A stretch of DNA of 64,000 nt from Minisyncoccota bacterium (GTDB lineage: Bacteria; Patescibacteriota; Microgenomatia; UBA1400; PJMF01). The stretch is from positions 17,347 through 81,346 of the forward strand of contig PJMF01000016.1 in the NCBI GenBank assembly GCA_003173865.1. Direction: 5' to 3'. Below, piece after piece: positions 7,304 through 35,360 of the stretch (within the stretch, counting starts at the first letter, position 1; each line of letters opens with the position of its first letter). The notes beneath the pieces were generated by a model. It was not told where the DNA came from. It ran no database searches and saw nothing but the letters and a program-made list of their open reading frames with translations. The position numbers and the translations under genes were made by a program.

Positions 7304-7342
7304 GAAGAGGTAATTACTATGAAATGGTTAATGATGTGCAGC

Positions 7343-7585
7343 CTAGCGGCTGCACTCGATTTTCTCCGAATTCCATACTCCGCCCTGAGCGAAGCAAAAA
7401 TCCGAAGCTTGCTTGTCTAGTACGCTGCGTTGTGTTGCAACACTTACTAATGTTGCCTGAACGGTTGATAGATCCTTTCTCTCGGGACTGAACGCTATGA
7501 CTAAAAAAAGGATGACATAGAGTATCAGCAGAAAACTTATGATCCAATTAGCGGAGGCATTCCATAACTTTTTCCAGTTGCTCAT
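7343..7585 (-). CDS. small membrane-anchored protein with a conserved C-terminal Cys motif, paralog 2 of a tandem pair
   Basis: 80 aa with an N-terminal TM helix. C-terminal ...FCFAQGGVWNSEKIECSR is shared with the upstream paralog. Its start lies 9 nt after the paralog's stop. Confidence 0.5.
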   Translation of the reverse strand: MSNWKKLWNASANWIISFLLILYVILFLVIAFSPERKDLSTVQATLVSVATQRSVLDKQASDFCFAQGGVWNSEKIECSR

Positions 7586-7594
7586 TTTTGGTTT

Positions 7595-7807
7595 CTACCT
7601 ATCGCACTCAAACTTCGTTGTATTCCATTTTCCACCCTCGGTGGCGCAAAATTCTTGCGCCTCTGTTGCAACGGCCATTGCCGTTGCCTTAATTCGAGGT
7701 AGCCCGGTTAAAAAATCCTGTGGCCGCAGTTTTGCGTCCACAACAATAAACAGACTAAGAAGAATGACCCAAAACAAAAGCATTAGGATCATCGGGTTGA
7801 AGAGCAT
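7595..7807 (-). CDS. small membrane-anchored protein with a conserved C-terminal Cys motif, paralog 1 of a tandem pair
   Basis: 70 aa with an N-terminal TM helix. C-terminal ...FCATEGGKWNTTKFECDR aligns with the 7343..7585 product (pattern A.VAT...FC..GG.WN..K.EC.R). Confidence 0.5.
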   Translation of the reverse strand: MLFNPMILMLLFWVILLSLFIVVDAKLRPQDFLTGLPRIKATAMAVATEAQEFCATEGGKWNTTKFECDR

Positions 7808-7871
7808 CTACTTGAAAACAAAGCCGCGGGGCATACCCACTTTTTTATTTTTAAGCAGAATTTCGCCCGAA

Positions 7872-7900
7872 AGTATATCAAAATGTGTCCCAATAGTCAA
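7872..7900 (-). promoter_or_regulatory. candidate promoter TTGACT-17-TATACT (minus strand) for the small Cys-motif gene pair
   Basis: -35 TTGACT (rc of 7895-7900) and -10 TATACT (rc of 7872-7877) with a 17 nt spacer, between the glnA stop and the first small gene. Confidence 0.4.
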
Positions 7901-7935
7901 TTTTTATAGGACGTAAGGAGGCCTACCAACTCGCC

Positions 7936-9369
7936 CTAAAACGAATTCCACAGCGCTTGATTAGTGACCTCATGGTGAAAGATCACTTCAGATATTTTAA
8001 CTGATGTACCAAGTTCTTTTGGACTTCGATCGGCGGCAGCTTGTTTGTAGGCCGCATATTTCTCTTTATTCGAACTGCCCAGAATTTTCTCAATAAACGG
8101 ACTGGCCTTAAAGAGTTTGAGAGCATCTGTGATAGTTCCTGGTAGGAAGCGCAAACGGTCACGTTTGTTTTCAGCTTTTTCGAGCTTTTGGCCCTCTAAA
8201 CCTGTACGCAGCAACGTATAAAGCCATAAATATGGATTTGCGTCCGGAGCCACTGAGCGCACCTCAATGCGGGCCGTTTTTTCATTACCCACCGGAATGC
8301 GAATCATTGATCCGCGATCAATTGGGGATACTTTAATTTGATTTGGTGCTTCAAAGTGTGGATCTAAGCGGCGATAGGCGTTTACGCTAGAATTTAAAAT
8401 CAAACAAATTTCCGGTGCGTGATTAAGCACTCGTGAAATAAAATCCCACGCCACAGAAGACAATCCTTCTTCACCTTTGGGATCGTAAAAAATACTTTTG
8501 CCATTTTTTGACAAAGAAAAATTCGTGTGCATACCGCTGCCGTTAATACCCATGATTGGTTTGGGCAAGAATGTGGCAGTCATGCCCATTTTGTTAGCGA
8601 CTTGGCGGCAAACTAATTTATATAACTGAATTTGGTCGCACGCGCGAATCACTTCAGTATAAGAAAAATTCATCTCAAACTGCGATGGTGCAACTTCAGG
8701 GTGATCTTTTTCGTTTTTGAAGCCCATGGCACGCTGTGCTTCGGCACAGGTGTCAATAAATTGGCGCAATTTGTCCATAGGAAGTGAGTGATAATACCCA
8801 CCTGAAGTGATCAATTGGAAACCAACCTTTTCATCGAAGTGCTGCTCTGCGTTGATGCCGTCAATCAAAAATCCTTCAATTTCGGCAGAAACATAAGGAG
8901 TAATACTTTGTTTTTTCTTCATTTGGGCGATATACATTTGCAACATACCGCGAAAGTCTGATTCATACTGTTTTTTATCGCGATCCATGATGTTTGCAAA
9001 CATCACCACTTTTCCCGGTCCAAACAGATCTGAAGGAAGCCACATCATGCTTGACCAATCAACGAAAAGACGGAGGTCGGATTCACTTTGCGCAGTAAAA
9101 CCGCGAATCGAAGAGCCATCAAACGTCAGATTGTCTGCAGATTCAAGTAAATATTTTTTGTCATAATCCAACATGTGGAAGCGGCCTTCAATATCAGTAA
9201 AGCAAAGTGTGACCGCTTTGATGCGTTTTTCTTTTTCTAAGTAGGTAGTATATTCTTGGCGCAGTTTTTCAGGATCTTCAGATAGACTTCTCTCTTTTGC
9301 CTTAAGATTCATTTCTTCAAGAGTATCGTAAGGGATTTCCAAGAAGTTGCGCAGAGAAGTGCTGTCCAT
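7936..9369 (-). CDS. glnA: glutamine synthetase
   Basis: GS catalytic-domain signature KPIMGINGSGMHTNFSL. 477 aa. SD AGGAAG upstream of the ATG. Confidence 0.9.
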   Translation of the reverse strand: MDSTSLRNFLEIPYDTLEEMNLKAKERSLSEDPEKLRQEYTTYLEKEKRIKAVTLCFTDIEGRFHMLDYDKKYLLESADNLTFDGSSIRGFTAQSESDLRLFVDWSSMMWLPSDLFGPGKVVMFANIMDRDKKQYESDFRGMLQMYIAQMKKKQSITPYVSAEIEGFLIDGINAEQHFDEKVGFQLITSGGYYHSLPMDKLRQFIDTCAEAQRAMGFKNEKDHPEVAPSQFEMNFSYTEVIRACDQIQLYKLVCRQVANKMGMTATFLPKPIMGINGSGMHTNFSLSKNGKSIFYDPKGEEGLSSVAWDFISRVLNHAPEICLILNSSVNAYRRLDPHFEAPNQIKVSPIDRGSMIRIPVGNEKTARIEVRSVAPDANPYLWLYTLLRTGLEGQKLEKAENKRDRLRFLPGTITDALKLFKASPFIEKILGSSNKEKYAAYKQAAADRSPKELGTSVKISEVIFHHEVTNQALWNSF

Positions 9370-27324: not shown

Positions 27325-28608
27325 ATGAAAAAATCGCTCTTTCACACAGTAGAGTTTGGATTTCTCTTAGTCATGATGGTTCTTTTTATTTTTTTGCGCT
27401 CACTCCATTTTGCACAATTTCTTAATTTTTCAGCTGATCAAGCGACTTTTTCGCTCAAGGCACTAGAAATTTGGCGAAATAAATCACTTGTACTTATCGG
27501 TCCTACGTTTTCTTTAAATGCGTTTGGGCGTTACGCTTTTCAAGGACCGGCAATTTATTACGTACAACTTTTCTTTTTACTCATTGGGAATTTTGATCCA
27601 GTGAAAACGTCATTTTTCTTCATGCTGTTTGCCAGCGTCATGACTTGGCCGCTGTATTATGGAGTGAAGTGGTTAAGCGGGAAAAAGGTTGCGGCCTTCA
27701 TCGTGATGTGCTACGTAACACTACCATTTTTCATCGACTACAGCCGTTTTCTCTGGAATCCCAACTTTCAATTTGTTTTGTCGCCATTTTTAATTTTAGC
27801 AATGGGCTGGTGTGCTCAAAAAATGAGTGCGTTACGATTTTTTTTAGTAGCAGTTATTGCTGGATTTTTACTTCAGTTTCATTACCAATTTGTCTTGGTT
27901 TTATTGGGATTATTTTTTTATTATTTTGTACAAAAAAAGTTACAGTGGCGTTACATTTTGCTGTGGATATGTGGAGTGATGATTGGATTTTTTCCATTGA
28001 TTCTGTTTGAGCTTCGTCATCAATTTTATAATACGCAAACGATTTTTCTTTTGGTTACTTCTTTTTTCCATCACTTTGATACTCAATCGAAACTTCATTT
28101 TGCATTTGCGCCTCATTATGTTTTGAGTGTTTCCTTTTTTCTTTTAGTAAGTGTCTCAACGATGTTAAAAAAATATCTTTCAAGTTTGGTGATCACGACC
28201 AGTGCAGTCATTTTGATTACTCTCTCTTTACTCCGATATTTCCCAACTCCTACTCACGCATTTGGGATGGTTGATGACTGGAATTACTCAAATGAACAAA
28301 AAATTGCTCAAGTTATCCAGAGTGAAAATATCTCCAACTTTAACGTCGTGAACCTGATTTATGACACCGATGCAGCTGTGCAGCGATACTTGCTTGTGAT
28401 AAACAATCAAGAAAATAAACTCGGTGATTATCAACACGAGCATTTTCTTTTTGTTGTGTATGGAGACGATGAACTTACTAAAACTCAGGCGTACGAAGTA
28501 AAAACTTTTGCTCCGTACACTCTGAAAAAGAAGTGGCAAATAAATTCCAAGTATACTCTGGCTTTACTAGAACATGCTCCTTCATACGGCAAGATACTGT
28601 TTGAGTAG
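27325..28608 (+). CDS. polytopic membrane protein, possibly a GT-C (ArnT/PMT-like) glycosyltransferase
   Basis: At least 10 TM helices. Assignment is weak and based on topology only. Confidence 0.4.
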   Translation: MKKSLFHTVEFGFLLVMMVLFIFLRSLHFAQFLNFSADQATFSLKALEIWRNKSLVLIGPTFSLNAFGRYAFQGPAIYYVQLFFLLIGNFDPVKTSFFFMLFASVMTWPLYYGVKWLSGKKVAAFIVMCYVTLPFFIDYSRFLWNPNFQFVLSPFLILAMGWCAQKMSALRFFLVAVIAGFLLQFHYQFVLVLLGLFFYYFVQKKLQWRYILLWICGVMIGFFPLILFELRHQFYNTQTIFLLVTSFFHHFDTQSKLHFAFAPHYVLSVSFFLLVSVSTMLKKYLSSLVITTSAVILITLSLLRYFPTPTHAFGMVDDWNYSNEQKIAQVIQSENISNFNVVNLIYDTDAAVQRYLLVINNQENKLGDYQHEHFLFVVYGDDELTKTQAYEVKTFAPYTLKKKWQINSKYTLALLEHAPSYGKILFE

Positions 28609-29886
28609 TTCTGCAAAAAGCATGGGTACCTGCGCCATCACTTCCGGTGATTCGACATACGCAATTCGCATTTGTGTTTTTCCTGGATTTGGTTGCCCTT
28701 TTTCGACTGAGTAAAAGCCAGCCATTGGTGCTACTAATAATGTTGTTTCGACGCCATTTATATTCACTTTTCCTTTTTCCGCGCAGTACATCACAAAGTC
28801 TTTTGCATTAAAATCGGCTGGAACTAAATGTCTGACATCAATGACGGAGTAGAGTGCGGCATCGGGTTTAGAAATAATTAAATCGGGTAACTTTTTCTTC
28901 ATTTCGGTCAAAAAAGAAAACATCATTTTTTTATAGTACTCACGTTGCTGTGCGTACCATTTTTGTAAGTCTTCATGGCTCTCGTGAGCCAAAGCGCCAA
29001 ACACATACTGTCCCAAAACATTCGCACACAAACTTGCTGTGTTTTCAGCGACTCCTTGTTGATGAAAAAGCGCATTATCCGTAATCAATGCACCTGTGCG
29101 TAAACCACAACCATTCCACACCTTAGAAGCGGACTCGATACTGATGCGTCGACCAGTAATGCCGGGAACTGAAGCTTCAGTGACACCCCAGACACTGCTG
29201 ACTTGATCACCGGTGTAAAAAAGTTCGCGGTAGGCCTCGTCGCTCACAAGCCACAAATTATATTTCACACAGAGTTGGGCCAACTTCTCGATGGTGTGCT
29301 GCGGCATAAATTGGCCCGTTGGATTGTCATAAGGAATGATGAGCAATGCATTTGGTTTATGCTGCTGAATTACTTTTTCGATTTCCGATATATCGGGTAA
29401 CTCAAAGACGCCTTCGTCATCTAACTTACGACTGATGGAAACAGTTGGTCTGCCAACCCTCTCAGCAATAGATAAATAATTTGAGTATGCAGCATCAATT
29501 AAAAGGAGTGGCTGCTCTTGAGTTCCTGCAGGTCCACATACTCCCAAAATAACCAGTTCCATTGCTTGGCTCCCGCCATCCGTAACTTGACAATACAGAC
29601 CATCAGTTTGAAATCCACTGGAAACGATGATATTAAAAAAAGCTTTTTGAGTTTCTTCTTCACCCACAGTTGGTGAGTACTTTACGACACCATCCTTAAA
29701 AGGACTTTCCACACTGTTAAGTGAAAACATGCGCTTTTGAATTGCGGGATGAATTGGTAAAGAAACGTTTCCAATCGAGGTGTTGACTGCAGTGACTTTG
29801 TCTTTGCGTTTCATGAACGCAATACTTGATTGGCGTACTGCCGAAGGTTGGCGAGACTCGAATTGGCGAGAAAGTTGTGGTGACAT
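28582..29886 (-). CDS. PLP-dependent aminotransferase class I/II
   Basis: Fold-type I pattern with a candidate PLP lysine in SASKVWNGCGLRTGAL. 434 aa. Confidence 0.7.
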   Translation of the reverse strand: MSPQLSRQFESRQPSAVRQSSIAFMKRKDKVTAVNTSIGNVSLPIHPAIQKRMFSLNSVESPFKDGVVKYSPTVGEEETQKAFFNIIVSSGFQTDGLYCQVTDGGSQAMELVILGVCGPAGTQEQPLLLIDAAYSNYLSIAERVGRPTVSISRKLDDEGVFELPDISEIEKVIQQHKPNALLIIPYDNPTGQFMPQHTIEKLAQLCVKYNLWLVSDEAYRELFYTGDQVSSVWGVTEASVPGITGRRISIESASKVWNGCGLRTGALITDNALFHQQGVAENTASLCANVLGQYVFGALAHESHEDLQKWYAQQREYYKKMMFSFLTEMKKKLPDLIISKPDAALYSVIDVRHLVPADFNAKDFVMYCAEKGKVNINGVETTLLVAPMAGFYSVEKGQPNPGKTQMRIAYVESPEVMAQVPMLFAELLKQYLAV

Positions 29887-29955
29887 TGAAGTAGTATAAC
29901 TGAATTCTTACATTTTTTTTAAAGAAATGTGATTCTTCCTCTATAAATTCATGAC

Positions 29956-31979: not shown

Positions 31980-32034
31980 ATTGTGGTTTTGGCTTTGCTT
32001 ACTTGTTTCTTACGGGAGTCTTATTTTCCTTTGA

Positions 32035-33312
32035 TTGTCTAAAGATAAAAAAGACCTGGTGATAACAAATTACTCACCTCTTCTTCAGATGGATCGCAGT
32101 TTAACTATAGGATATAATCCTCAAGAAATGTCTGATAGTATTCTCGCTAGGGTGAGCAGGTTCTCCCTATATTTTCTGGACACTGTGAACGTAAAAGAGG
32201 TGTACAAAATTGTGGTGGAAAAAGGCACTGAACTTCTCAATGGAGTGGACGGTGGTGTGCTTTTGCAAAGAAATGGCATATTCGAGCTGGTCTATGGAAC
32301 AAGCGAAAGTATGCAAAAGACAAAAGCCCGTAAAAAAGGCTTTGCGTATCAAGCCTTTACTCAAAAAAAAACAATTGTGATGGTTGATCCTGAAAAGCAA
32401 GAAGAAGACTTTAGAAATGCTCATCCAAATCTGAAAGATATTGGTATTGTGTCAGCAGTATTTATTCCTCTTTCTTTTCAGAAAAAATCTATTGGTGTGC
32501 TCGTGATTCGTTTTGATAAAAAAATCAGTTTTACTCGCGCTGAGCTTGATGCACTCAACATTTTTGGAGCAATGGCCACACTCTCAATTCGGAAAGCGTT
32601 GCTCTATTCGGAAACCGTGAACGCCCTGAAAACGCGTGATTTATTTATGTCGACCGCGGCACACGAATTGAAAACGCCCATGACCGCAATTAGTGGGTAC
32701 GCACAGCTTTTAAATAATAAATTTCAAGATCCATCATCTTCTGAGTATCGATGGGTACATAACTTATCAAGTGAAGTTTTTCGGATGACCCAATTGATCA
32801 ATGAACTTCTGATTGCGAATCAAATTAAGTCAGGAAAATTTAAGTATACGTGGAAAGAAGTAGGTTTGCGGTCAGTATTAGATGAAACAATTAAAAATTT
32901 TACCAGAGAGTTTCCAGATCGGGTGATTACCTTTAAAGATAAACTTGATCAAGAAGATGACACCATTACTGCGGACAAAGATAAATTACTCCAAGTGTTT
33001 GATAATATTCTGGATAATGCTGCGAAGTTTTCATCCCAAGAAAAGCCGATTACTGTTTCCCTCTTTGCCGATGATCTGCACCTTGTTGTCGAGATTGATG
33101 ACCAAGGTGAAGGAATTCAAAAAACCGATCTCCCCCATGTCTTTGAAGAATTTTATAAATCGCAAAATGACCACTTTCACCAAGGGATGGGGTTAGGTTT
33201 GTACTTGGTGCGAATAATCATCTTGCATCACCATGGTACAATTAGAATTAATTCTAAAAAAAATAGAGGAACTAGAGTAACTATACAGTTGCCAAAACGA
33301 AATTATGAGTAA
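32035..33312 (+). CDS. sensor histidine kinase with an N-terminal GAF-like domain (cytoplasmic)
   Basis: H-box STAAHELKTPMTAISGY, N-box DNILDNAAKFS, G-boxes DQGEGI and GMGLGLYLVRII. No TM helices. Confidence 0.8.
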   Translation: MSKDKKDLVITNYSPLLQMDRSLTIGYNPQEMSDSILARVSRFSLYFLDTVNVKEVYKIVVEKGTELLNGVDGGVLLQRNGIFELVYGTSESMQKTKARKKGFAYQAFTQKKTIVMVDPEKQEEDFRNAHPNLKDIGIVSAVFIPLSFQKKSIGVLVIRFDKKISFTRAELDALNIFGAMATLSIRKALLYSETVNALKTRDLFMSTAAHELKTPMTAISGYAQLLNNKFQDPSSSEYRWVHNLSSEVFRMTQLINELLIANQIKSGKFKYTWKEVGLRSVLDETIKNFTREFPDRVITFKDKLDQEDDTITADKDKLLQVFDNILDNAAKFSSQEKPITVSLFADDLHLVVEIDDQGEGIQKTDLPHVFEEFYKSQNDHFHQGMGLGLYLVRIIILHHHGTIRINSKKNRGTRVTIQLPKRNYE

Positions 33313-34585
33313 TGAAAGATTTACAAAAACTCAAGAACAAAAACAAGGGATAGTTAATGATCTTCTTCCAATATTAAGTCGTATGAACTTTCTAGAGGGT
33401 GTCCAAGTTCTTGAGACGCTTCAACTATACCAACCAGAAATTACTGAAGTATTAAATACGCTTGCCGCAGAAATTGCGACTGAACTGTTATATCCTAATT
33501 TGGAAACAAAAAAAATGTTTTGGCTTGGTCTTTTTGGTGATTCTGGTTCTGGTAAAACCACATTTATTAGCCAATTTCTATTGGAATTGGAAGTAAGAGT
33601 AAAGTTTGCAGTTTATCAATTAGTTCATAATCAATTCGAAGATAAAGAAGTGAGTAATGAAATCCAAGCAAGAATTGTTGAAACTCTTATTGAACGATTT
33701 AATTATCTTTACGCTAGCTTTTCGGACGCTCTGAAAGCCCTTTATGATAAAGGAGAGATAAAAAGAGGAACAGAGTGGGGACACTTTACTCCTGAACAAT
33801 TTAATTCAGCAGGAGTTTTATTGGCCAAAGCTTTGCTTGAATCCTGGAAACAACTGCAAAAACAGGATGAGCCATTGGTTCTGTTGGGTATTGTTGATGT
33901 GTTTGCACTTGCGCGTGGAATTGGCGATCGTGTAATGGCGTACATGGTGAAAGATTGGCTGGGTAAACCTGAAACTATAATTTTCGGAATGATAGCCGAT
34001 CCAGATGTATGGTTAAGAGCTATTGAAGAACGAACAATTTTAGAAAATCCAGATTTTCGTGGCGAAAACTTACGTGACATTCTTGTTGAACTGGATGCAA
34101 TAGTCCATGGTAATGTTAATGCGCTTCCGCATGCAAGTGCAAATCCATATGCTCAGAGATTAGGTAGAGGATTTGCAGTAGAACAAATGAGTACTCTCCA
34201 TCCTTCAATATGGGAAAAATATACGGATCAACCACCTACAGCACAAGAAATACAAGAAATGAGGGCGGACATTAATTCTTCGGCTTACTATAAGTACTTG
34301 CCTATCTATATGCGGATCTTAATAAACGAATACTGGAATGGAAAATGGGTTGCTGCGGACTCTCCCGAGGCAGCATCTCAAGATCCGAGAAATTTAATCG
34401 TAAGAGAAGATGGAGCGGTATGGGTGGCTGGACAGAATCGTGTAGATCGCTCACTGATCATTCAAAATAGGCCAGTACGAGGACCTATAGATAAGTATCA
34501 TGATCTACTTACTGAAGATGGAATCCCTAAAAACGACGAGCATGCTTTTCCATTTTATGCTGTATCTTTAGACCTCATTCCTTAA
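33305..34585 (+). CDS. P-loop NTPase of unknown function (uridine-kinase/PRK-like Walker A) coupled to the GAF histidine kinase
   Basis: Start overlaps the kinase stop by 8 nt. Walker A LGLFGDSGSGKTTF. 426 aa with a large C-terminal region carrying no recognised motif. Confidence 0.55.
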   Translation: MSNERFTKTQEQKQGIVNDLLPILSRMNFLEGVQVLETLQLYQPEITEVLNTLAAEIATELLYPNLETKKMFWLGLFGDSGSGKTTFISQFLLELEVRVKFAVYQLVHNQFEDKEVSNEIQARIVETLIERFNYLYASFSDALKALYDKGEIKRGTEWGHFTPEQFNSAGVLLAKALLESWKQLQKQDEPLVLLGIVDVFALARGIGDRVMAYMVKDWLGKPETIIFGMIADPDVWLRAIEERTILENPDFRGENLRDILVELDAIVHGNVNALPHASANPYAQRLGRGFAVEQMSTLHPSIWEKYTDQPPTAQEIQEMRADINSSAYYKYLPIYMRILINEYWNGKWVAADSPEAASQDPRNLIVREDGAVWVAGQNRVDRSLIIQNRPVRGPIDKYHDLLTEDGIPKNDEHAFPFYAVSLDLIP

Positions 34586-35249
34586 TCACGTACCCAAATC
34601 CGCGCACGGAGTGAAGTAACTTTTTCTCGTGATCTTTGTCGATTTTTTTGCGCAGGTAACCCATATACACGTCGACGACGCGTGTTTCAATATCAGGAGA
34701 GTACAGCCAAATTCGATTCAAAATCATCTCACGAGTCAAGATTTGACCTTTATTATTCATTAAGTACTGCAGCAGCTTAAACTCTTGAGGAGTCAGCTGG
34801 ATAAGTTTCCCAGCTCGCTTCACTTCGAGTGTTTTGGTATTTAACTCAAGGTCATCAATCACAATGCGATGGTCACTTGCTTCTCTGCGTTTCATCCGCG
34901 CTTTAATGCGCGCAAGCAGCTCATCGGCGACAAAGGGCTTCGTTAAGTAGTCGTCTGCTCCAAGATTGAGACCTTGGACGATATCGGCAATGGTGTCTTT
35001 GGCAGATAAAATAATGACTGGTAAATCATGGTAGTTTTTACGAATTTCACTCACCACTGCCTCGCCGGTGAGTTTGGGTAAACCTAAATCCAGAATAACC
35101 AGATCTGGAATTGATTTTTGTAGTTGCTCGAGTGCCTCAATGCCGTCGCTCGCCAGTTGAGCTGAGTAACCGTTGTCGAGTAAAAGTTCTTTTAAGTATT
35201 TTTGAACACCTTGATCATCTTCGACGATCAAAATTGAGTGGATCATCAC
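34575..35249 (-). CDS. OmpR-family response regulator (REC + winged helix)
   Basis: DD pair (VEDDQG), D in ILDLGLP, K in TKPF. C-terminal trans_reg_C (VDVYMGYLRKKID, RGFGY). Confidence 0.9.
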   Translation of the reverse strand: MMIHSILIVEDDQGVQKYLKELLLDNGYSAQLASDGIEALEQLQKSIPDLVILDLGLPKLTGEAVVSEIRKNYHDLPVIILSAKDTIADIVQGLNLGADDYLTKPFVADELLARIKARMKRREASDHRIVIDDLELNTKTLEVKRAGKLIQLTPQEFKLLQYLMNNKGQILTREMILNRIWLYSPDIETRVVDVYMGYLRKKIDKDHEKKLLHSVRGFGYVIKE

Positions 35250-35360
35250 TAGATTTTACCAGTTTTGTGATAAAGCTCAATCGAGTGGAAGGATTGCTTA
35301 CCCTTTTCTTACATTTTGATATCCACTTTCCAATCATCTCTGCCCGAAGTAAGATGAAGC

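Follow-up and report, generated by a model that had tools for sequence, protein, structure and literature searches.

Two-component systems are usually treated as pairs of a sensor kinase and a response regulator. Well-documented auxiliary proteins of such systems are few, and we know of none with a P-loop-kinase fold. In KdpD, an N-terminal ATP-binding domain (PF02702) modulates the kinase. The actinobacterial conservons combine a sensor kinase-like protein (CvnA), a roadblock protein (CvnB), CvnC, and the Ras-like GTPase CvnD, which is thought to modulate signaling (PMC13343842). Here, we analyzed a stretch of 64,000 nucleotides (nt) from a Minisyncoccota bacterium (contig PJMF01000016.1, positions 17,347 to 81,346; here called the window), in which a 426-amino-acid (aa) P-loop protein, given the working name X, is encoded at 33305..34585 (+) directly behind a soluble sensor histidine kinase. 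We tentatively suggest that X may be a cytoplasmic, nucleoside triphosphate (NTP)-binding auxiliary (third) component, with a P-loop-kinase fold, of a two-component system made up of this GAF kinase and an OmpR-type regulator. The genes and junctions of the locus are as follows.

32035..33312, forward strand: soluble sensor histidine kinase, GAF-HisKA-HATPase_c; TTG start, 425 aa; alternative start, ATG at 32089.
33305..34585, forward strand: X gene, of an unnamed, fast-evolving family that is encoded directly after an orthologous kinase in bacteria of the candidate phyla radiation (CPR).
33305..33312, forward strand: 8-nt kinase/X overlap, holding the ATG of X and the TAA of the kinase; no Shine-Dalgarno (SD)-like sequence upstream.
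34575..35249, reverse strand: OmpR-family response regulator, Response_reg plus Trans_reg_C (Pfam), convergent with the kinase-X pair.
34575..34585, both strands: tail-to-tail overlap of X and the regulator, with 11 nt shared by the two 3' ends.

The X open reading frame (ORF) has the coordinates, strand, and length that a sequence-only reading of the window had taken from the ORF table; it starts with ATG, and the public gene call P0001 is the identical 426-aa product. That reading also described an 8-nt overlap between the kinase stop and the X start and a convergent OmpR-type regulator on the opposite strand. Both are present, with the kinase TAA at 33310-33312 and the X ATG at 33305 (sequence context aaattATGAGTAAtg, also written ATGAGTAA). 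Its further labels for X, "co-translated" and "signaling accessory," we treat as inferences. By Pfam, the kinase has a GAF domain (residues 52-184), HisKA, and HATPase_c, and we regard it as a soluble sensor because its N terminus has no hydrophobic segment. Its start is ambiguous: the longest ORF runs from the TTG at 32035 (425 aa), and the NCBI call P0006 runs from the ATG at 32089 (407 aa).

As in the conservons, a sensor histidine-kinase-type protein and a P-loop NTPase are encoded in one operon, and by analogy CvnD, together with the KdpD domain, appears to be the nearest precedent among NTPases for a third component in kinase signaling. The conservon GTPase is small, Ras-like, and dependent on roadblock and DUF742 partners, whereas X-type proteins are 305 to 490 aa long, have a predicted fold that is kinase-like and not GTPase-like, lack NKxD, and come from CPR bacteria and not from Actinomycetota. 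X also lacks the strand-terminal DxxG of CvnD; the RDxG loop of its family comes several residues later than the Walker-B strand, and in the window protein its Asp is missing. We rejected conservon membership, since no Ras, roadblock, or DUF742 domain was detected by Pfam in X or its neighbors. The likeness to KdpD is that a Walker A module is tied to a GAF-HisKA-HATPase kinase core, and one relative of the window kinase carries the label "KdpD" in the Joint Genome Institute (JGI) data. Unlike the KdpD domain, X is a separate polypeptide encoded downstream and has no Usp or transmembrane region. Neither X nor any of 16 family members matched PF02702, so X was not assigned to the KdpD N-terminal domain.

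The family to which X belongs was found through synteny. Relatives of the kinase occur in CPR bacteria (Daviesbacteria, Levybacteria, Blackburnbacteria, and Parcubacteria), many of them at 36 to 49% identity. In the two closest, a gene of 392 or 452 aa without a Pfam match has a 4-nt overlap with the kinase stop, and the convergent regulator comes next (the 392-aa gene is on the contig of P0007); in a third, kinase and regulator are directly convergent with nothing between them. Scanning metagenomes with the kinase alignment gave 60 further loci, which we analyzed by ORF calling, tblastn, and a hidden Markov model (HMM). Occurrence was counted over distinct orthologous loci in which the sequence continues for at least 1 kb past the kinase (about 38), and an X-type gene (305 to 490 aa, same strand, right after the kinase) was found in 21 of them. 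The conservation of the kinase/P-loop pair in relatives that the sequence-only reading called for is therefore borne out by 21 distinct loci in which stop and start codons nearly always overlap. The X start falls within 4 nt of overlap (ATGA) in 13 loci, 8 nt in 2 (the window included), and 11 or 14 nt in 2, and it follows a gap of 3 to 5 nt in 3 more, so that in 20 of 21 loci it either overlaps the kinase stop or lies right beside it; in the last (L040), a histidine-phosphatase gene intervenes. No SD-like 4-mer precedes the X start in 15 of 21 loci. Starts without an SD sequence that sit on the kinase stop suggest termination-reinitiation coupling to kinase translation. X also stays behind the kinase where the regulator lies upstream or is absent from the locus (L043, L040, L017, and L051).

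Homology among the downstream ORFs was visible in part by BLASTP, which linked the window protein to L014 (2e-7; residues 74-298), L014 to L019 (5e-7), L019 to L020 (1e-27), L020 to L033 (3e-32), and L016 to L031 (2e-13). An HMM built from 16 members was run against 983 ORFs of at least 80 aa from the window and the loci, and every match at an E value of ≤1e-3 was an ORF downstream of the kinase. Five X ORFs outside the training set were recovered at E values of 1e-12 to 2e-6. When the window protein was left out of the model, it was still recovered at 1.3e-8 (residues 14-255); the next window ORFs were ABC ATPases (0.095 and 0.26), and the best of 2,000 shuffles reached 0.55. At the level of sequence, then, the motif and family signal is more than chance. 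Members in public records are annotated "hypothetical protein," and we found no entry for the family or its linkage to the kinase in Pfam or NCBIfam and nothing in the literature searched.

The family diverges very fast. Over 153 locus pairs, the regulator had a median pairwise identity of 72%, the kinase 45%, and X 16%; this divergence of X explains why ordinary homology searches miss the family. In the kinase tree, loci that carry X are scattered among loci that lack it (neighbors include L004/L005, L016/L009, and L039/L034), a pattern that fits an old gene lost repeatedly. The residues that persist are the Walker A lysine K84 (21/21 members), G83 and R243 (20/21 each), N388 (19/21), G207 and A279 (17/21 each), D322 (16/21), the Asp of the RDxG loop (15/21), and the acidic residue that ends a Walker-B-like strand at position 198 (14/21). 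Residues of the nucleotide site (K84, the acidic 198, R243, and N388) are thus retained while the rest of X diverges.

The Walker A motif of the window protein is canonical, as the sequence-only reading had it: LGLFGDSGSGKTTF covers residues 74-87, and GDSGSGKTT covers residues 78-86. Outside it, that reading saw no known motif, in agreement with our searches of Pfam, NCBIfam, PADLOC, PHROGs, and PDB sequences, which gave no match above a curated cutoff. All weak library matches were confined to the P-loop, and a weak PDB match to phage g3p (E = 0.089) was taken as chance. A word-indexed search of 5.8 billion clusters returned X itself alone, and nothing further came up with the P-loop masked and P0002 added as a query. 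An exhaustive phmmer search of 1.84 billion representatives found one true relative, the 95-aa fragment P0002 at the edge of a 951-bp contig, which is 53% identical to residues 335-424 of X; the gene after it is convergent and overlaps it by 11 nt, as the regulator does X. The other three phmmer matches were giant RCC1-repeat proteins that align solely over the blade-like stretch REDGAVWVAGQN, and we regarded them as short-motif resemblances and not as homologs. Back-translated pattern scans with the X alignment found nothing in Genome Taxonomy Database (GTDB) genomes or JGI metagenomes. A PDB profile search with the family alignment returned only Walker-A-driven matches (Hsp104/ClpB, ABC transporters, and APS kinase).

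The sub-threshold matches of X were to NB-ARC, nSTAND families, PADLOC mad8 (E = 6.6e-4), and Zeta_toxin. Together with fast evolution, variable presence, and a slot that also accepts other genes, they could be read as signs of a rapidly diversifying conflict or defense NTPase (STAND-like or toxin-like) in a variable locus. We consider this highly improbable. Every one of these matches is P-loop confined and below its cutoff, X has no effector domains or mobile-element features, no homolog outside the kinase context appeared among the 1.84 billion representatives, plasmids, or phages, and strict coupling to the kinase speaks against an independently mobile cassette. Since PADLOC, PHROGs, plasmids, and phages yielded no match or only sub-threshold ones, we set defense and mobile-element readings aside. 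X was likewise not assigned to the STAND/NB-ARC NTPases, for which an NB-ARC or NACHT profile above threshold together with an ASCE-type fold would be expected.

The fold of X was modeled with AlphaFold2. A single sequence gave a predicted local distance difference test score (pLDDT) of 39.7; with a 10-member alignment, the predicted template modeling score was 0.60, and pLDDT was 70 to 87 over residues ~40-250. The model has beta-1 (70-78), the P-loop and its helix, beta-2 (132-138), beta-3 (192-200, with D198), and beta-4 (224-231), followed by a helix with R243, a poorly predicted helical region of ~135 residues, and beta-5 (383-388, with N388). The Walker A lysine is preceded by the modeled strand 70-78, and the five-strand parallel core can be superposed on solved kinases. 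A conserved loop, WG.FT..EF, lies where P-loop kinases bind their acceptor. A kinase-type P-loop fold is therefore reasonably supported by the model. The corresponding features of the X gene, all on the forward strand, are as follows.

33536..33559: Walker A, G78-D-S-G-S-G-K84-T85, read from the sequence; K84 in 21/21 and G83 in 20/21 members.
33878..33904: predicted beta-3 with the Walker-B-like Asp198, then the RDxG loop (RGIG in the window protein); from the model and conservation.
34001..34045: helix after beta-4 with Arg243 (20/21), where P-loop kinases have their LID arginine; the equivalence is a predicted one.
34451..34468: predicted beta-5 ending in Asn388 (19/21); from the model and conservation.
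34283..34438: insert (approximately residues 327-378) common to X and P0002 only, with the RCC1-blade-like stretch.

The insert resembles the junction between an Ig-like domain and the first RCC1 blade in giant repeat proteins (1,800 to 6,700 aa). Library-wide E values for this match go down to 4e-8, but over ~65 residues only, at 31 to 37% identity.

The sequence-only reading likened X to uridine kinase and phosphoribulokinase. Of this, the GxSGSGKST-type Walker A of the window protein stands, and membership in the PRK family has no profile support. PF00485 (PRK) was absent from the matches of all 16 members at an E value of ≤0.1, and NCBIfam PRK07429 reached only 0.078 (12 bits, against a cutoff of 236) over the 22 residues 68-89. 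In keeping with the lack of a known motif elsewhere in X, profile and structure searches placed it in no characterized family; this outcome, like the conserved gene pair, leaves the idea of the sequence-only reading unrefuted. We compared X with PRK-, uridine kinase-, and pantothenate kinase-like proteins (D-glycerate-3-kinase 7xpc, YGR205w 1odf, YFH7 2gaa, PanK 3avo, and uridine kinase 3asy). Like these enzymes, it has a GxSGSGK[ST]T-type Walker A after a hydrophobic strand, a predicted five-stranded P-loop kinase core, and a strand-plus-helix element with a conserved Arg after beta-4. Unlike them, it has ~135 extra residues between the LID-like helix and beta-5 and motifs of its own (WG.FT..EF, RDxG, and N388), and it is always encoded behind a histidine kinase. 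Identity to Clp1/Grc3 and other polynucleotide or tRNA P-loop kinases (4ohv, 8puw, T4 PNK, PSTK, and Kti12) was 9 to 16%, and in contrast to Clp1, X has no detected Clp1 N- or C-terminal domains, RNA-processing gene context, or sequence-profile match.

X is likely a third component of the kinase-regulator system because it is encoded directly behind, and overlapping, the sensor-kinase gene, here and in at least 20 related uncultured CPR bacteria; the operonic linkage expected of an auxiliary component is conserved in 21 distinct loci. In such a role, X would bind the kinase and use ATP or another NTP, by binding or by phosphotransfer. The nucleotide step might then shift the balance of autokinase and phosphatase activities of the kinase toward the regulator, and X would add a second, nucleotide- or metabolite-dependent input beside the signal read by the GAF domain.

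Several observations weigh against this proposal. About 17 of 38 orthologous kinase loci (~45%) lack the X gene, which is therefore dispensable, the two-component system being able to work without it. Overlapping genes are frequent in this compact genome, so the 8-nt overlap alone is weak evidence. The structural model has a mean pLDDT of 58.5 and falls below 50 over residues 262-351, its alignment holds 10 sequences only, and Foldseek gave no match for it at an E value of ≤1e-3. The window protein lacks the Asp of the family RDxG motif, and 7 of 21 members have no acidic Walker-B residue. Walker A itself is not conserved across the family (e.g., GESLSGKT, GLEKDGKT, and GASGAGKE); the residue after its lysine is Ser or Thr in 15 of 21 members and E, K, G, G, R, or N in the others. 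Finally, the binding of X to the kinase and its enzymatic activity are both inferred.

The replacement of this Mg-coordinating Ser/Thr in 6 of 21 members implies that catalysis may not be universal in the family. To judge from their motifs, members with GKE, GKG, GKK, GKR, or GKN probably bind nucleotides only or act as scaffolds, and the window protein, with its canonical Walker A, is probably catalytically competent. The noncanonical residues after the Walker lysine and the lost Walker-B residues, along with very fast divergence and repeated loss, would also suit a pseudo-enzyme or scaffold throughout, in which X has lost catalysis and merely binds the kinase, or a gene drifting toward loss. 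We think this unlikely, since intact ORFs of 305 to 490 aa persist across lineages whose kinases are only ~40% identical, K84, R243, and N388 are kept in 19 to 21 of 21 members, and in the window protein, GDSGSGKTT is canonical at every position.

The slot between kinase and regulator holds other genes in some loci. His_Phos_1 phosphatase genes are present at L039:7200-8018 (−; 26.8 bits) and L040:6131-6781 (+; 21.6 bits), and in L040, the gene lies between the kinase and X, with overlaps of 4 and 11 nt. In four loci, an unannotated gene of 275 to 308 aa, here called Y, follows X and precedes the convergent regulator (L015:3377-4303, L021:7167-8048, L024:2465-3292, and L035:7234-8097; all +). 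Y proteins share an N-terminal hhhhDLHG motif, ICSA, and an acidic D/E-N/D-D stretch near the C terminus, and they have no Pfam or PDB profile match; that Y might be a HAD-like phosphatase is only a guess. In L016, a sigma-54-type response regulator (Response_reg, Sigma54_activat, and HTH_8; 7318-8760, −) lies between X and the OmpR-type regulator. Slots without X may hold small genes on the regulator strand (L050:1573-2097, L054:904-1428, and L059:6157-7014; all −); among the products of such genes are a 174-aa protein with a weak match to a cyanophycin-synthase-like N-terminal domain and a 285-aa protein without a family.

These partner genes bear on the possibility that X is a small-molecule kinase whose product is, or removes, the ligand of the GAF domain, forming a private messenger loop that a co-encoded phosphatase reverses in some genomes. 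The phosphatase genes in L039 and L040 echo the pairing in 6-phosphofructo-2-kinase/fructose-2,6-bisphosphatase (1bif and 5hr5), the Y gene with its DLHG motif follows X in 4 loci, and the WG.FT..EF loop sits at the acceptor site of P-loop kinases. The parallel is limited, however. Here, kinase and phosphatase would be separate genes, and X shares no sequence similarity with the bifunctional enzyme beyond the fold. Only 2 (plus 4 with Y) of the 21 loci have phosphatase partners, and the window is not among them; Y could be placed in no family; residues of an acceptor site are not assignable in X; and a median identity of 16% with a degraded Walker A would be unusual for an enzyme with a fixed substrate. 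On balance, such an activity seems improbable. Slightly less probable again is a specific form of it, in which X, produced at a fixed ratio to the kinase, would synthesize a private messenger, a phosphorylated small molecule read by the kinase's own GAF domain, with the His phosphatase or Y destroying the product in some genomes.

The X/regulator overlap of 11 nt in the window recurs in L013, L014, L020, and L029 and on the P0002 contig. An 11-nt overlap at the regulator tail was seen in the window and in L005, L011, L013, L014, L020, and L029, with X as the convergent partner in some of these loci; where X is absent, the kinase itself makes the 11-nt tail overlap with the regulator. Several X proteins end in IP because the conserved final codons of the regulator (...IKE*), when reverse-complemented, read ...IP*. 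The convergent genes at 34575-34585 leave no space for a terminator.

Upstream of the regulator and of the kinase-X pair lie repeats of the form GTAAGAA-N4-GTAAGAA, which look like a putative operator of the OmpR/PhoB type.

35295..35312, reverse strand: putative regulator box GTAAGAAaaggGTAAGCA, 63 nt upstream of the regulator start and followed by a TTGAGC-17-TAAAAT promoter.
31996..32024, reverse strand: three tandem half-sites, ATAAGAC-N4-GTAAGAA-N4-GTAAGCA, directly upstream of the kinase gene, in inverted orientation.

The latter boxes end 11 nt before the TTG at 32035 and 65 nt before the ATG at 32089. As a direct repeat with an 11-bp period, the pattern has 6 matches in the window, against 0.78 expected, and none of 100 shuffles reached 6. 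In the relatives, we surveyed the upstream regions of regulator and kinase genes (loci L004 to L059). The repeat preceded 24 of 34 regulator genes, with −64 as the commonest position, directly ahead of a −35/−10 promoter (shuffles, ~0.1), and 18 of 46 kinase genes, in the forward orientation (shuffle mean, 0.13). Since the same repeats stand at the regulator gene and the kinase-X operon, the module looks autoregulated in both transcription units, X included. A weaker copy at 29905-29922 (−) lies upstream of an aminotransferase gene (28582..29886).

Past the regulator are genes for a membrane protein of ~185 aa, a Pyr_redox_3 flavoprotein, a P-type ATPase, and a DsbD-thioredoxin fusion. This arrangement recurs in relatives and hints at a regulon for envelope redox or ion functions. 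With redox and ion-homeostasis genes around the module that are syntenic in relatives, boxes for the regulator on the kinase-X operon, overlaps frequent in the genome, and X dispensable, X could be an operon passenger, that is, an enzyme or ATPase that is a target gene of the system and has no part in signaling. We find this doubtful, as target genes would be expected elsewhere too, whereas X is found only behind the kinase, where it stays when the regulator is relocated, with no homologs in other contexts; moreover, its divergence is extreme next to that of neighboring enzymes.

A subgroup of kinase relatives of ~555 aa, labeled Parcubacteria (P0008 to P0012 and L012:5001-6686), has a tandem duplication of the GAF domain. 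A fused P-loop in these proteins was ruled out, the extra segment being the second GAF. The GTDB scan with the kinase returned distant kinases only, and no close relative of the window genome was found among GTDB representative genomes. The window has a GC content of ~41%, a short PRK01584-type alanyl-tRNA synthetase, and a 4-nt overlap of rpoB and rpoC, which fits a sparsely sampled CPR/Patescibacteria lineage. All but one of the window proteins found in the collection, RpoB and RpoC included, were singletons at 90% identity.

The genomic evidence for the kinase-X family is strong, and the function of X in signaling is a proposal. Across CPR bacteria, overlapping stop and start codons link the family to a single orthologous group of soluble GAF kinases, and its discovery illustrates how apparent ORFans can be resolved by building profiles from syntenic loci. 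For the regulator, the conserved GTAAGAA-N4-GTAAGAA boxes are a testable candidate operator. If X were to synthesize a messenger, the locus would be a self-contained metabolite-gated two-component circuit, so far found only in CPR/Microgenomates. If, as we favor, X modulates the kinase, it would represent a new class of nucleotide-dependent input into histidine-kinase signaling. CPR bacteria have tiny genomes and obtain nucleotides from their hosts, and given this dependence, X might link signaling to nucleotide or energy status.

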